A stretch of DNA of 64,000 nucleotides from Gemmatimonadota bacterium (GTDB taxonomy: Bacteria > Gemmatimonadota > Gemmatimonadetes > Gemmatimonadales > GWC2-71-9): contig JBDTNH010000004.1 of NCBI GenBank assembly GCA_039933845.1, positions 259 to 64,258 of the forward strand, given 5' to 3'. This document shows positions 19,367 through 55,825 of this stretch, piece by piece. The first letter of the stretch is position 1. Each line of letters opens with the position of its first letter. The position numbers and the translations under genes are program-made. Under the pieces are notes generated by a model, which was not told the DNA's origin, made no database searches, and was given only the letters and a program-made list of their open reading frames with translations.

Positions 19367-19401
19367 GATGAAGGATGAAGGATGAGCGATGGAGGATCAA
19401 C
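19367..19401 (+). repeat. heptamer tandem repeat (GATGAAG-like, 5 units)
   Basis: gatgaag gatgaag gatgagc gatggag gatcaac. Overlaps the stop of gene 19397..20065 and lies upstream of the iron permease start. Confidence 0.7.
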
Positions 19402-21179: not shown

Positions 21180-22226
21180 ATGACCACACCAGCACTCCCG
21201 TCCAGACGGACAATGCTTCAGGCAGTGACCGACCGAGATCCCTCGTGGGACGGAGTGTTCGTTGTGGCGATCACCACGACGGGCATCGCGTGTCGCCCGA
21301 CCTGCCCGTCCCGTCCCGCGCGTCCCGAGCATCGCCGATTCTATCCGACCCTCGACGCGGCGATCGAGGCCGGATTTCGTGCTTGCCTCCGCTGCCGACC
21401 GGAGGTCGCCTCGACCACCCCGGCGCTGTGGGAGCGCGCGGTTGCGCTGGCGGATCGGATGGCACCGGACCGGCCGGACGATGACGCCTTGCGAGCAGAC
21501 GGACTCGACCCCGTCCAGCTCCGCCGCCTCGGCCGACGTCTGCACGGCATGACCTTTCACGCGTGGCTCCGCGCTCGACGGATCGCCACCGCCCAGCGTC
21601 GCCTTCACCATGGCGAGGAGCTCGATCACGTGATTCTCACCTCCGGTTACTCATCTCACAGCGGATTTCGCGATGCGTTTGCGCACGTGATGGGGAAGTC
21701 TCCCGGTCGAGGGCGCGTGAACGAGCCGATCGCCATGCGCACGATCGATTCTCCGGTTGGTCCCCTGGTCACCGCCGCCGTCGACGAGGGCATCTGCCTG
21801 CTCGAGTTCGCGGACGAAGCGCGCGTCGCGCGCCAGGCAACTCAACTCGGCCGGTGGTTCTCGGGCCCCATCATCCCGGGCAACCATCCGCACCTCGAGA
21901 CACTCGCCACCGAACTCGAGGCCTACTTCGGCGGGTTGCTCGTGAGGTTCACCGTCCCGACGGCCCTGCGCGGTACACCATTCGAGCTGCAAACCTGGCA
22001 GGCCCTCACCACGATCCCGCATGGCGAGACCCGGAGCTATCTCGACATGGCACGACTGATCGGCAATCCCGGCGCTGTCCGCGCCGTCGGCAGTGCCAAC
22101 GGCCGCAACCGAATCGCCATCGTGATCCCCTGCCACCGGGTGGTCAACGCCGACGGCAAGCTCGGCGGCTACGGCGGCGGACTCTGGCGCAAGCGACGCC
22201 TTCTGGAACTGGAAAGCGAGAAATGA
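21180..22226 (+). CDS. ada: bifunctional Ada: methylphosphotriester-DNA methyltransferase / AraC-type regulator / O6-methylguanine-DNA methyltransferase
   Basis: N-terminal Cys cluster (ACRPTCPSRPA ... CLRCRP), AraC HTH (SGYSSHSGFRDAF), and C-terminal MGMT active site IPCHRVV. Confidence 0.85.
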   Translation: MTTPALPSRRTMLQAVTDRDPSWDGVFVVAITTTGIACRPTCPSRPARPEHRRFYPTLDAAIEAGFRACLRCRPEVASTTPALWERAVALADRMAPDRPDDDALRADGLDPVQLRRLGRRLHGMTFHAWLRARRIATAQRRLHHGEELDHVILTSGYSSHSGFRDAFAHVMGKSPGRGRVNEPIAMRTIDSPVGPLVTAAVDEGICLLEFADEARVARQATQLGRWFSGPIIPGNHPHLETLATELEAYFGGLLVRFTVPTALRGTPFELQTWQALTTIPHGETRSYLDMARLIGNPGAVRAVGSANGRNRIAIVIPCHRVVNADGKLGGYGGGLWRKRRLLELESEK

Positions 22227-22288
22227 GAAACGAGAAGCGAGAAACGAGAAGCGAGAAGCGAGAAACGAGAAGCGAGAAACGAGAAGCG
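22216..22288 (+). repeat. heptamer tandem array (GCGAGAA/ACGAGAA, 10 units)
   Basis: Strict 7-nt periodicity read directly. The array begins inside the last codons of ada, whose TGA lies at 22224-22226. Confidence 0.9.
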
Positions 22289-22351
22289 TGCTGCGTAAAG
22301 TGTGAAGCATGACATGCGATACCGTCGGAATGCGCTCCCGGTTCGGCGACC

Positions 22352-22441
22352 CTCGTTTCGCCTGTCTCGTGTCTCGTGTCTCGTGTCTCGCCTCTCGCTT
22401 CTCGCTTCTCGCTTCTCGCTTCTCGCTTCTCGTTTCTCGCG
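22352..22441 (-). repeat. heptamer tandem array, inverted copy of the 22216 array (about 13 units)
   Basis: The plus strand reads ctcgttt/ctcgtgt/ctcgctt with a 7-nt period. Its reverse complement is GCGAGAA-type. It abuts the stop (22442-22444) of the minus-strand TauE gene. Confidence 0.9.
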
Positions 22442-23164
22442 TCATGCCCAGATCAGCTTGATACCCGCCATCAGCAGGACCACCGCCAGCGTGGCGCGAA
22501 TCGCGGCGCTTGGCAGCCGCTTGGCCCCCAGGTGGGAACCGATCGTGCCGCCCAGCACGACGGCGATACTCCACGGCAGCAGTTGAGGGGGCCAGTCCCT
22601 GACCGTCCCGAGTTGACCGAGCAGCCCTGCGGCCGAATTGGCGAGGATGAAGACCACGGAGGTGGCGGCGGTGGTCCGCAGCGTGGCCCAGCCGAGCAGC
22701 AACAACAGCGGACTCAGGAAGATCCCCCCCCCAACGCCCGTGAGGCCGGCCAGGAATCCAAGCCCGGCACCGGTGGTCAGGGCGATGCCGCGCGGTGGTG
22801 CCCCGCGCGCCGTGTCCGGTGCCCGCAGCCGCACAAGGAATCGTAGCGCCGAGGCGATCAGCACGACGCCGATGATGACGCGATAGACGGTGACCGGCAG
22901 GGCGAGCCGACCGCCGAGGTACGCCATCGGCACCGACGTGACCAGGAACGGCCAGAGCAGCGGCCAATCGAGATGTCCGGCACGCAAAAAGGTGCGGGTG
23001 CCGATGCTGGCCACGATCAGGTTGAGAGTGAGCGCCACCGGTCGCATGACGCCGGGTGTCATGCCGAGGAGTGCCATGATGGCGAGGTACCCTGACGCGC
23101 CGGCGTGTCCGACCGAGGAATAGAGGAGCGAGGCGACGAAGATGGCGAGAGTGCCGAACAGCAC
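22442..23164 (-). CDS. sulfite exporter TauE/SafE family protein
   Basis: 240 aa and hydrophobic with about 8 helices. Glycine-rich GLTGVGGGIF segment typical of the family. Confidence 0.8.
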   Translation of the reverse strand: MLFGTLAIFVASLLYSSVGHAGASGYLAIMALLGMTPGVMRPVALTLNLIVASIGTRTFLRAGHLDWPLLWPFLVTSVPMAYLGGRLALPVTVYRVIIGVVLIASALRFLVRLRAPDTARGAPPRGIALTTGAGLGFLAGLTGVGGGIFLSPLLLLLGWATLRTTAATSVVFILANSAAGLLGQLGTVRDWPPQLLPWSIAVVLGGTIGSHLGAKRLPSAAIRATLAVVLLMAGIKLIWA

Positions 23165-33171: not shown

Positions 33172-33205
33172 CTGCTCGCCTTCTCGCTTACTCGCTTTCT
33201 CGCTT
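33172..33205 (-). repeat. short GCGAG-core tandem repeat (about 4 units) directly after the rnz stop
   Basis: Minus strand reads TGA-AAGCGAGA-AAGCGAGT-AAGCGAGA-AGGCGAGC. It has the same core as the 22216 arrays. Confidence 0.6.
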
Positions 33206-34120
33206 TCAGTCCGCGTACGGCACCTCGATCACCATCCCATCCTTGGCGATTCGAGTGGCAGGGAACAGTTGGCGAGCTTCGTCAAGGAGCTCGGGCGCTT
33301 CCCGGGAGTAGCGGGCAGAGATATGCGTCAGCACCAGCTCGCGTACGCCGGCATCCCGGGCAACCTCGGCGGACTGGCGAGCCGTGCTGTGTCGGGTTTC
33401 GCGTGCCCGGACGCCTTCCTCTTCACCAAAGGTCGCCTCGTGCACCAACAGGTCCGCGCCGGTCGCGAGGACCCGGACCGCCGCGCATGGTGCGGTGTCG
33501 CCACTCATGACCACGCGTCGCCCACGTCGAGCTGGGCCGACCAATTCTTCCGGCCGAACGACGCGACCGCTCTCGACCGTGACGGATTCACCCCGGTGGA
33601 TCCGGCCCCACATCGGTCCCTCGGGAACCCCCAGGCTGCGCGCAAGGTCAGGGTCGAACCGCCCGAGTCGCGGCTTCTCGACGAGCGCGTAGCAGAGCGC
33701 GTGTCCCTTGTGCGCCGCCTCGCCAACCTCGATCAGGTGATCGCCGCGGTCGAGCACATCGCCGGGCCGAATCTCCTGGATCTCGACCGGAAACTTCGGC
33801 CGCTCCATGCCGAGATCAAGCAGGGGGCGCAGCTGCCGCTCCGCATCCGGTGGGCCATACAGCGTGAGCGGCGCCGAGCGGTCCTGCAAGCCCATCGTGC
33901 GCAGGAGCCCCGGGAGCCCGAGGGTGTGATCCGCGTGGTAATGTGTAAAGAAGAGCTCGGCCATCGTGAAGCCGACGGCGTAGCGCATCATCTGTCGCTG
34001 AGTGCCTTCCCCGCAATCGAAGAGCACCGGCACACCCTCGCGTTCGAGCATCATCGCCGTGACGTTGCGCTCGACCGAGGGAACCGCTGCTCCGGTCCCG
34101 AGGAAGGTGAGGCGAATCAT
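33206..34120 (-). CDS. rnz: ribonuclease Z
   Basis: [14 protein letters not shown] and metallo-beta-lactamase motif HYHADH. 304 aa. Confidence 0.9.
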
Positions 34121-55714: not shown

Positions 55715-55749
55715 ACGAGAAGCGAGAATCGAGGAACGAGGAGCGAACA
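55715..55749 (+). repeat. heptamer tandem repeat (ACGAGAA/GCGAGAA-type, 5 units)
   Basis: acgagaa gcgagaa tcgagga acgagga gcgaaca, in the divergent intergenic region. Confidence 0.6.
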
Positions 55750-55800
55750 GGTACGGGAATCTACCCCGCCGTGGTCGCGACCTCATGGTCATGGCCAATT

Positions 55801-55825
55801 CGCTTTCTCGCCTTCTCGCTTTCAG
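55801..55825 (-). repeat. inverted partner of the 55715 repeat (about 3 units)
   Basis: The plus strand reads cgctttctcgccttctcgctttcag. Its reverse complement is GCGAGAA-type. Confidence 0.55.

Follow-up and report, generated by a model that had tools for sequence, protein, structure and literature searches.

A heptamer element between two converging genes

We analysed a 64,000-nucleotide stretch of DNA (the window) from a Gemmatimonadota bacterium of the order Gemmatimonadales, and this report concerns an element of tandem heptamers that lies in it between two converging genes, ada and tauE (Table 1). The ada product carries the Pfam domains Ada_Zn_binding, HTH_18, Methyltransf_1N and DNA_binding_1, i.e., an Ada Zn-binding part, an AraC-type HTH and an O6-methylguanine-DNA methyltransferase, and alignments of its orthologues reach residue 334-336 of 337. 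The gene facing it encodes a TauE/SafE-family sulfite exporter. An earlier note, made without database searches, had described two inverted (GCGAGAA)n arrays between these genes, and both are real: 10 full units plus GCG on the plus strand, and 12 clear units plus 1-2 degenerate ones in the opposite orientation.

The plus-strand array, or purine arm (22216-22288, about 10.4 units), reads GCGAGAA (22216-22222), ATGAGAA (22223-22229) and then eight further units up to 22285 in the order ACGAGAA, GCGAGAA, ACGAGAA, GCGAGAA, GCGAGAA, ACGAGAA, GCGAGAA, ACGAGAA, before the partial GCG (22286-22288); the general form is RCGAGAA. As the earlier note had it, the array begins in the last codons of ada, whose final three codons and stop are made of repeat units (..S-E-K-stop). 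The stop itself, TGA at 22224-22226, lies inside unit 2 and is a C-to-T variant of the unit's CGA. The minus-strand array runs from 22440 back to 22357 in 12 clear units (GCGAGAA, ACGAGAA, five GCGAGAA, GCGAGAG, GCGAGAC and three ACGAGAC), followed by the degenerate units down to about 22343. It had been placed exactly at the tauE stop; it is adjacent to that stop but does not abut it, as one base (22441) separates the array from TCA at 22442-22444 (TGA on the minus strand). As had been proposed, the mRNA of either gene would have a sense (RCGAGAA)n tract right behind its stop, and the full palindromic form occupies the entire gap between the converging genes.

Tandem Repeats Finder (TRF) reports both arms, at 22212-22288 and at 22364/22386-22440, and a two-unit pattern with at most one mismatch gives 16 matches in the window where shuffled sequences give 0.18. 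The element is thus a head-to-tail repeat of a 5-11 nt unit beyond chance length, which places it among the long simple sequence repeats. Its unit is 6/7 purine, as described before, with C or T at every 7th base, and because GCGAGAA and ACGAGAA contain no run of two or more G, a G-quadruplex is impossible. Since neither strand of the repeat has a stop codon in any frame, spurious long open reading frames (ORFs) run through the arrays (21563-22312, 22302-22586 and 22376-22846 on the plus strand and 21651-22967 on the minus strand), and these could lead automatic annotation to miscall genes.

Table 1. Positions of the genes, arrays and hairpins discussed in the text; positions without a contig are those of the window
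Feature	Location	Strand	Basis or remarks
ada	21213..22226	+	own gene call; PF02805, PF12833, PF02870, PF01035; orthologue alignment
Purine arm	22212..22288 (units from 22216)	+	sequence reading, TRF, pattern search
Spacer/loop, unique, ~63 nt	22289..22351	.	sequence reading, folding, Rfam, comparison with other spacers
Pyrimidine arm (purine-sense array for the TauE mRNA)	22352..22441	-	sequence reading, TRF, pattern search
tauE (TauE/SafE-family sulfite exporter gene)	22442..23164	-	own gene call; Pfam PF01925; stop TGA 22442-22444
Array, 8-nt period variant (GAAAGCGA-like)	33175..33207	-	TRF, own gene call
Short inverted pair	55716..55823	.	purine arm 55716-55746, pyrimidine arm 55800-55823; TRF, pattern search
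TGTCACGCTGAGCGAAGCG ... CGCTTCGCTCAGGGTGACA palindromic family	C45:15948-16062, C73:12205-12340, C69:8101-8214, C93:2155-2250, C6:161-274, C23:14120-14230		
GCCGAGCCGCGGCCnTCAGGCCGCGGTTTGGTT hairpin	G000 C3:49004-49050, C3:50600-50644, C9:350-391, C107:7050-7099, C143:730-777		
Stop-array-terminator loci (Vibrionaceae, Pseudoalteromonas, others)	L012, L026, L040, L045, L053, L061, L077, L084, L089, L110		

A predicted long stem between the two arms

Folded as RNA, positions 22205-22450 reach -138.8 kcal/mol on the plus strand (z -10.7) and -142.5 kcal/mol on the minus strand (z -12.9), with the arms pairing over about 75 bp and only a few single mismatches. The earlier expectation that read-through RNA would form a long imperfect stem with a loop of about 63 nt is therefore borne out for either strand, and a stable GC-rich stem-loop, such as an intrinsic terminator has, is present at the element. 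The spacer between the arms has weak local structure only, and it matched no Rfam family and none of the palindromic core families found in other copies (described below). The Rfam matches that did appear were sub-threshold plant and animal miRNA precursors, which we dismissed as generic long hairpins.

The element belongs to a genome-wide family

The window lies on contig C4 of a metagenome-assembled genome (MAG; G000, 2.71 Mb, 198 contigs, 65.9% GC), for which our own gene calls with a codon-usage model gave 2409 genes and 90.6% coding sequence. TRF returns 193 period-7 rows in this genome (AAGCGAG 108, AAACGAG 21, AAGTGAG 9), along with unrelated heptamers such as AAGGATG, AACGCTC and AGAGGCG. 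We count about 147 RYGAGAA arrays at 122 loci, 6.9 kb in total, with a median of 5.6 units and a maximum of 17, and 142 of the 147 lie outside coding sequences. The ada-tauE element is one copy of this slippage-prone (RYGAGAA)n family, which is of the bacterial long simple sequence repeat (LSSR) kind.

Seventeen of the 147 arrays fall within 60 nt of a contig end, where about 1% would be expected (C13:1, C44:3, C83:7, C119:1, C122:7, C140:1, C163:2, C175:1 and C194:1 are among the contig ends concerned). This excess implies that arrays are a main cause of breaks in the assembly and that 147 is an underestimate. An assembly artefact was rejected as the origin of the arrays, because separately assembled genomes, isolates and near-complete MAGs among them, show the architecture, and orthologous sites show it too.

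The window itself holds further members of the family. The 8-nt-period variant array is purine-sense directly after the stop of a minus-strand gene (33206-34120) and upstream of a tRNA. The short inverted pair at 55716-55823, again purine-first, sits between divergent genes, so that both 5' leaders would carry the pyrimidine version. A different purine-rich heptamer, (GATGAAG)4.4, stands at a gene junction at 19367-19397; GATGAAG forms 11 arrays genome-wide.

Arrays follow strict rules of orientation and position

The earlier note had suggested a genome-wide scan for enrichment 3' of stop codons, and the result is positive. Among arrays that face a stop, 69 of 79 in purine sense start at most 12 nt from it (median 1 nt), compared with 9 of 77 in pyrimidine sense (median 73 nt). 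The rule does not depend on pairing, as among single arrays only, 41 of 45 purine-sense and 9 of 44 pyrimidine-sense arrays lie within 12 nt of a stop, and purine-rich heptamers with other units, such as GATGAAG and GTGAGAC, obey it too, being stop-adjacent in 14 of 17 cases in purine sense versus 2 of 17. Pyrimidine-sense arrays are nearer to start codons, at a median of 35 nt versus 104 nt for purine-sense ones. Where two inverted arrays lie within 300 bp of each other, the purine arm comes first in 25 of 25 pairs and the reverse order never occurs. All 25 pairs fold to between -38 and -160 kcal/mol on both strands. By junction type, arrays are present at 10.7% of those between convergent genes, 3.3% of those between tandem genes and 5.1% of those between divergent genes.

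The stops next to sense arrays are unusual in composition. TAG makes up 50%, TGA 39% and TAA 11%, against 24/70/6 in the genome (chi-square p = 4e-8), and this mix is near the 2:2:1 expected for T followed by two purines of an array. A good number of these stops therefore consist in part of repeat sequence, as the ada stop does. TAG stops at array junctions are preceded by G in 27 of 35 cases versus 48% genome-wide.

Compact strong hairpins, counted as compact perfect stems, flank the purine arrays 3' in 21 cases and 5' in 4, with the caveat that the 5' flanks are mostly coding; minimum free energies of the flanks are uninformative for the side of the hairpin because GC-rich coding flanks fold well. 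Spacers frequently contain GC hairpins that resemble terminators, and three or more families of palindromic repeats account for other hairpins. Along the direction of transcription, the consensus order begins with a stop and a purine array, continues with a hairpin or spacer and a pyrimidine array, and ends at the next start or the opposing stop.

Several palindromes recur in G000. A family of about 110 nt (TGTCACGCTGAGCGAAGCG ... CGCTTCGCTCAGGGTGACA) stands exactly between inverted heptamer arms, and a second family (TCATCCCGAGC ... GTGCAGATCCCTC ... GGGATGA) occupies the same place at C3:3010-3131 and C55:3163-3275. A hairpin resembling the repetitive extragenic palindromic (REP) kind (GCCGAGCCGCGGCCnTCAGGCCGCGGTTTGGTT) recurs directly 3' of purine arrays, and a related TTAGG-headed hairpin (TTAGGCGCGACCGTCAGGCCGCGC) is found at C136, C144 and C11.

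Positions persist among relatives while units turn over

Of 25 species in the genus, 12 contain a three-unit pattern of the repeat, which is absent from all 16 genomes that represent other genera of the order. In three species of the genus (G010, G006 and G015) we find a fixed form of the element in 19, 31 and 24 copies, respectively, with the layout stop, (GCGAGAA)3-5, a 38-nt GC-rich hairpin core, (TTCTCGC)3-5 and the stop of the opposing gene. The core has the consensus GCGTGGCCCAGCGGAGAGATCTTCCCGCCGAGCCACGC in these three species and no Rfam family matches it. Three positions of its stem show compensatory double changes (C-G/T-A, C-G/G-C and C-G/T-A), and the 44 copies whose context could be classified lie at 31 convergent, 12 tandem and 1 divergent junctions. 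The core element also shows two stem subfamilies and a conserved A.C mismatch at pair 10-29.

At the orthologous ada-TauE spacer, G052 carries an inverted GCGAGAA pair, while other species carry other heptamers: AGAACGG in G018, GCTGAAG in G014 and CAACGAC in G051. In the closest species, G012, this spacer is 581 nt long and holds repeat remnants with a (TTCGCGC)n array abutting the TauE stop; on its contig C12 it also holds two REP-like hairpins and an apparent extra small minus-strand gene. The orthologous spacer is only 0-24 nt long in three species.

A 36-kb stretch is syntenic between G000 and G012, with flanks about 80% identical, and arrays are present in both species at 6 of 6 alignable junctions. 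The numbers of units differ (e.g., 13 versus 4, 10 versus 14, and 4+4 versus 10+7), and at one junction a single array in one species corresponds to a full pair in the other. The position of an array thus persists across species, while its length, its unit variants and even the identity of its unit turn over. For a comparison at strain level, exact-protein look-ups with TauE and Ada and two metagenome scans with junction-flank patterns matched nothing. Loss of mismatch repair was rejected as a cause of the arrays since MutS is present in 41 of 41 members of the genus; in G000 the mutS gene is split between contigs C119 and C172.

GCGAGAA arrays behind stop codons in other phyla

A scan across bacteria used exact (GCGAGAA)4 and, being ascertained on this unit, gives no ranking of its commonness against other heptamers. 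Among the matches listed, the pattern occurs in many phyla, and 33 of 95 arrays have the end of a sense ORF (100 codons or more) between -35 and +12 nt from their purine 5' end, mostly at -1 to +3; the mirror situation is seen at 5 of 95. In Vibrio, Enterovibrio, Photobacterium and Pseudoalteromonas, a stop is followed by 6-19 perfect units, a short spacer and a canonical hairpin with a T-tract terminator, and the stop often overlaps the first G of the array (TA+G). Multiple copies of this stop-array-terminator layout are carried by 4 of 4 Vibrionaceae genomes searched.

These loci, in Vibrionaceae, Pseudoalteromonas, Planctomycetota and others, raise the idea that purine-sense adjacency to stops is a general rule across phyla, which would point to an unrecognised process at the end of translation and transcription that goes beyond neutral slippage. 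We regard this as doubtful. If there is such a process, the array may serve as a purine spacer without structure of its own, so that folding of the terminator is uncoupled from the terminating ribosome; a heptad-periodic RNA-binding factor may be at work; or an R-loop may drive expansion starting where ribosomes leave the RNA.

A proposed two-way hairpin at the 3' ends of both transcripts

The role we favour as the most likely, in a judgement that is close to evenly balanced, is a two-way 3'-end hairpin, which the arms would form with each other in nascent RNA from either gene and which would act as a terminator or as an RNA stabiliser, with arm length changing by slippage. A polymerase coming from either gene would transcribe the purine arm before its pyrimidine complement, and the nascent RNA would snap into a stem of about 75 bp beginning 0-1 nt behind each stop. 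This hairpin would mark or protect the 3' ends of both transcripts. It would help the polymerase to stop, or keep off 3'-to-5' exonucleases once termination has taken place further downstream, as REPs and bacterial interspersed mosaic elements (BIMEs) do, or act in both ways, and less antisense read-through would reach the facing gene. Numbers of units would change by replication slippage independently in each arm, so that stem and 3'-UTR length would differ between lineages. The inverted second arm probably arose by extension of a palindrome or by spread of a purine-first palindromic unit.

This reading draws on the bias toward 3' ends and convergent junctions, the fixed polarity, the hairpin element of the relatives and the slot between stop and terminator in Vibrionaceae. 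The polarity puts an A-rich arm before and a U/C-rich arm after the central hairpin in both directions. Also in its favour are the location of arrays outside coding sequences, the stop-adjacent purine-sense rule, the compact 3' hairpins, the folding of all 25 pairs, the retention of positions between G000 and G012 and the inverted pair at the orthologous spacer of G052. A published analogue exists in Xanthomonas, where repeats capable of forming G-quadruplexes have transcripts starting or stopping at or near them more often than control repeats do (PMC4692102).

Several observations weigh against a 3'-end hairpin. A simple terminator scan of 21900-22800 found no canonical site, the pyrimidine arm (UUCUCGC) makes a poor U-tract with 3 U per 7 nt, and coding sequence follows the full ada-tauE hairpin. 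In tandem contexts the sense and antisense RNAs do not differ in stability (7 of 13 in G000 and 7 of 12 for the cores in relatives), so selection on one strand of RNA, which would accept G.U on one strand where the other has C.A, is not visible. With about 11% of convergent junctions occupied, the arrays are not general terminators of this genome, and the three species with a spacer of 0-24 nt do without the element at this site. Some pairs, such as 55716-55823, are situated between divergent genes, a setting in which a hairpin in the mRNAs is improbable.

Other explanations of the arrays

The main rival explanation, which we think rather unlikely, is that the arrays are largely a non-functional by-product of slippage and that their placement is shaped only by what selection forbids. 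Purine tracts resembling Shine-Dalgarno sequences would not be tolerated just upstream of starts, purine arrays would become fused to gene ends since T plus two array purines makes a stop codon, and inverted partners would come from template-switch extension of neighbouring hairpins. The stop mix described above, near 2:2:1 and far from that of the genome, fits this, and the absence of strand asymmetry in RNA stability agrees with it. So do the many unrelated heptamer units in one genome, the patchy occurrence of the family in the genus, and the ada-TauE junction, where the unit differs between species (AGAACGG, GCTGAAG, CAACGAC, TTCGCGC) and the gap is nearly closed in three. The presence of MutS in all species speaks for ordinary slippage and not a repair defect, and slippage linked to the polymerase footprint has been proposed for heptamers generally (Mrazek 2007, as cited in PMC4679880). 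However, pure slippage alone does not predict a polarity of 25:0. More than 100 arrays keep their unit across several species with about 20% flank divergence and positions are retained, convergent junctions are strongly enriched, and the stop-array-terminator layout recurs in distant phyla.

Less probable is a mobile or formerly mobile palindromic element, similar to a miniature inverted-repeat transposable element (MITE) or a REPIN, with heptamer runs as terminal inverted repeats, that inserted at gene ends and whose arms were later expanded by slippage. The purine-first polarity would then be inherited from the founder, and such an origin is compatible with either the hairpin or the by-product explanation. 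The relatives with 19-31 near-identical copies, a fixed 38-nt core and 3-5 units on each side look like the outcome of such spread, as does the 25:0 polarity, and other palindromic families are found inside spacers. Inverted arms are present in G000 as well, while copies of fixed length are confined to relatives. GTAG stands next to REP hairpins, and the enrichment of TAG at junctions, with G before it in 27 of 35, recalls this, although T plus array purines can also explain the stops. Against mobility, no target-site duplication was recognised at the junctions, the spacers of the G000 pairs are mostly unrelated to each other (the ada-tauE spacer included), and the Vibrio arrays are single and stand beside ordinary terminators. 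The Y1 transposase family that includes the REP-associated tyrosine transposases (RAYTs), PF01797, does not track the arrays: it has no hit in the array-rich G006 and G020, it has hits in the array-free G002, G013, G014 and G018, and in G000 the hit is weak and partial only. We therefore rejected a RAYT-driven REP, as PF01797 shows no correlation with array content across the genus.

A structure at the level of DNA, whether a cruciform, an R-loop-prone purine tract or H-DNA, that absorbs supercoiling or slows polymerases at colliding transcription units is very improbable in our estimate. The long inverted arms are a perfect candidate for cruciform extrusion and are enriched at convergent junctions, where positive supercoils accumulate, and the pairs between divergent genes, which an mRNA hairpin hardly explains, would fit as well. 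Purine-rich RNA on a pyrimidine template gives stable hybrids, which would favour R-loops. However, a 63-nt loop disfavours extrusion of a cruciform, and single arrays obey the orientation rule without a partner. The potential for H-DNA raised in the earlier note is not supported, since a pyrimidine interrupts the tract at every 7th base and mirror symmetry is missing (rotating GCGAGAA never yields its reverse, AAGAGCG), so that the tract lacks what a classic intramolecular triplex requires; as a control pattern, AAGAGCG gave 0 hits in tandem searches. The least probable explanation, a periodic binding site for a protein whose domains each recognise some 7 nt of single-stranded RNA or DNA (a cold-shock/OB-fold protein, ribosomal protein S1, or Rho on the C-rich, G-poor arm), would suit the 7-nt period, a unit strictly conserved across many arrays and species, the regularly spaced YC dimers of the C-rich, G-poor (UUCUCGC)n and the binding of CspB to heptamers, one protein per unit with a T/C-rich preference (as cited in PMC4679880), but no candidate protein was identified, the arms would be double-stranded in pairs, and one genome holds many different units.

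Relation to known repeats

The earlier note knew of no equivalent in this kind of genome, and the literature corrects this. The architecture seen here was published for GGGAATC of Xanthomonas by Rehm et al. 2015 (PMC4692102), and heptamer LSSRs are common by the account in PMC4679880. The Xanthomonas repeats form 70-75 inverted "convergent" pairs; a repeat on the coding strand lies at most 50 bp from a stop or overlaps it, a repeat on the non-coding strand lies close upstream of ORFs, and repeats are under-represented between divergent ORFs (PMC4692102). Two species share positions with different lengths, and starts or ends of transcripts fall on or close to repeats capable of G-quadruplexes more frequently than on control repeats that lack this capability (PMC4692102). 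Like GGGAATC and GGGGAYT of Nostoc (PMC4692102), the RYGAGAA family consists of dispersed, mostly intergenic 7-nt arrays. It shares with GGGAATC the convergent inverted pairs, the purine/G-rich coding strand at the stop with the opposite strand near starts, the rarity between divergent genes, and positions kept between species with lengths that are not. It differs from both in having no G-runs and hence no capacity for the G-quadruplexes stressed by Rehm et al., in its longer arrays (median 5.6 units, up to 17) and in its host phylum, Gemmatimonadota. The RYGAGAA family is therefore not a new kind of element; it extends the published Xanthomonas rules to a new unit and a new phylum. Because these rules hold for a unit that cannot form quadruplexes, quadruplexes are not needed to explain them.

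Heptanucleotides are the commonest long simple sequence repeats in many bacteria, and slippage was proposed as their origin (Mrazek, Guo & Shah 2007, as reported in PMC4679880). With LSSRs (units of 5-11 nt) and the cyanobacterial STRR, the RYGAGAA family has in common, so far as the account in PMC4679880 goes, a heptanucleotide unit, many loci, an intergenic bias, patchiness among relatives and slippage as the presumed generator. STRR, however, are defined for heterocystous cyanobacteria and have other units, and the LSSR definition does not include the strict stop-adjacent, orientation-dependent layout and the inverted pairs seen here. The TAACTGA repeats of marine Beggiatoaceae (MacGregor 2015, PMC4679880) are likewise abundant intergenic heptamers with a fixed orientation to genes and with a unit found in distant phyla, but they lie mainly upstream of starts, include stops in every frame, come in 2-6 copies and hardly ever form inverted pairs.

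The REP/BIME (REPIN) sequences of enterobacteria and pseudomonads are similarly extragenic and palindromic, often after stops and between convergent genes, and their RNA hairpins stabilise the upstream mRNA and can affect termination and translation. They are fixed imperfect palindromes of 20-40 nt linked to RAYTs, whereas the RYGAGAA arms are variable tandem heptamers with no RAYT association seen. In bidirectional intrinsic terminators, and in the inverted DNA-uptake sequences found in terminators of Neisseria and Haemophilus, a short over-represented motif is inverted downstream of converging genes. The RYGAGAA element resembles them as an inverted-pair hairpin with its A-rich side upstream and its U-rich side downstream, but it lacks a proper U-tract, has far longer stems and iterates its motif in tandem. 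Literature searches found no description of such repeats in Gemmatimonadota or of (GCGAGAA)n in Vibrio, and those on the GCGAGAA unit itself returned only primers and unrelated motifs.

Significance

The role of heptanucleotide repeats has been an open question since at least 2007. On the practical side, the arrays break short-read assemblies and create long spurious ORFs. An absolute polarity of 25:0, together with arrays that start within a base or two of the stop and are often part of it, ties the phenomenon to the direction of gene expression, and the presence of (GCGAGAA)n in the slot between stop and terminator of cultivable Vibrionaceae makes the question testable at the bench.

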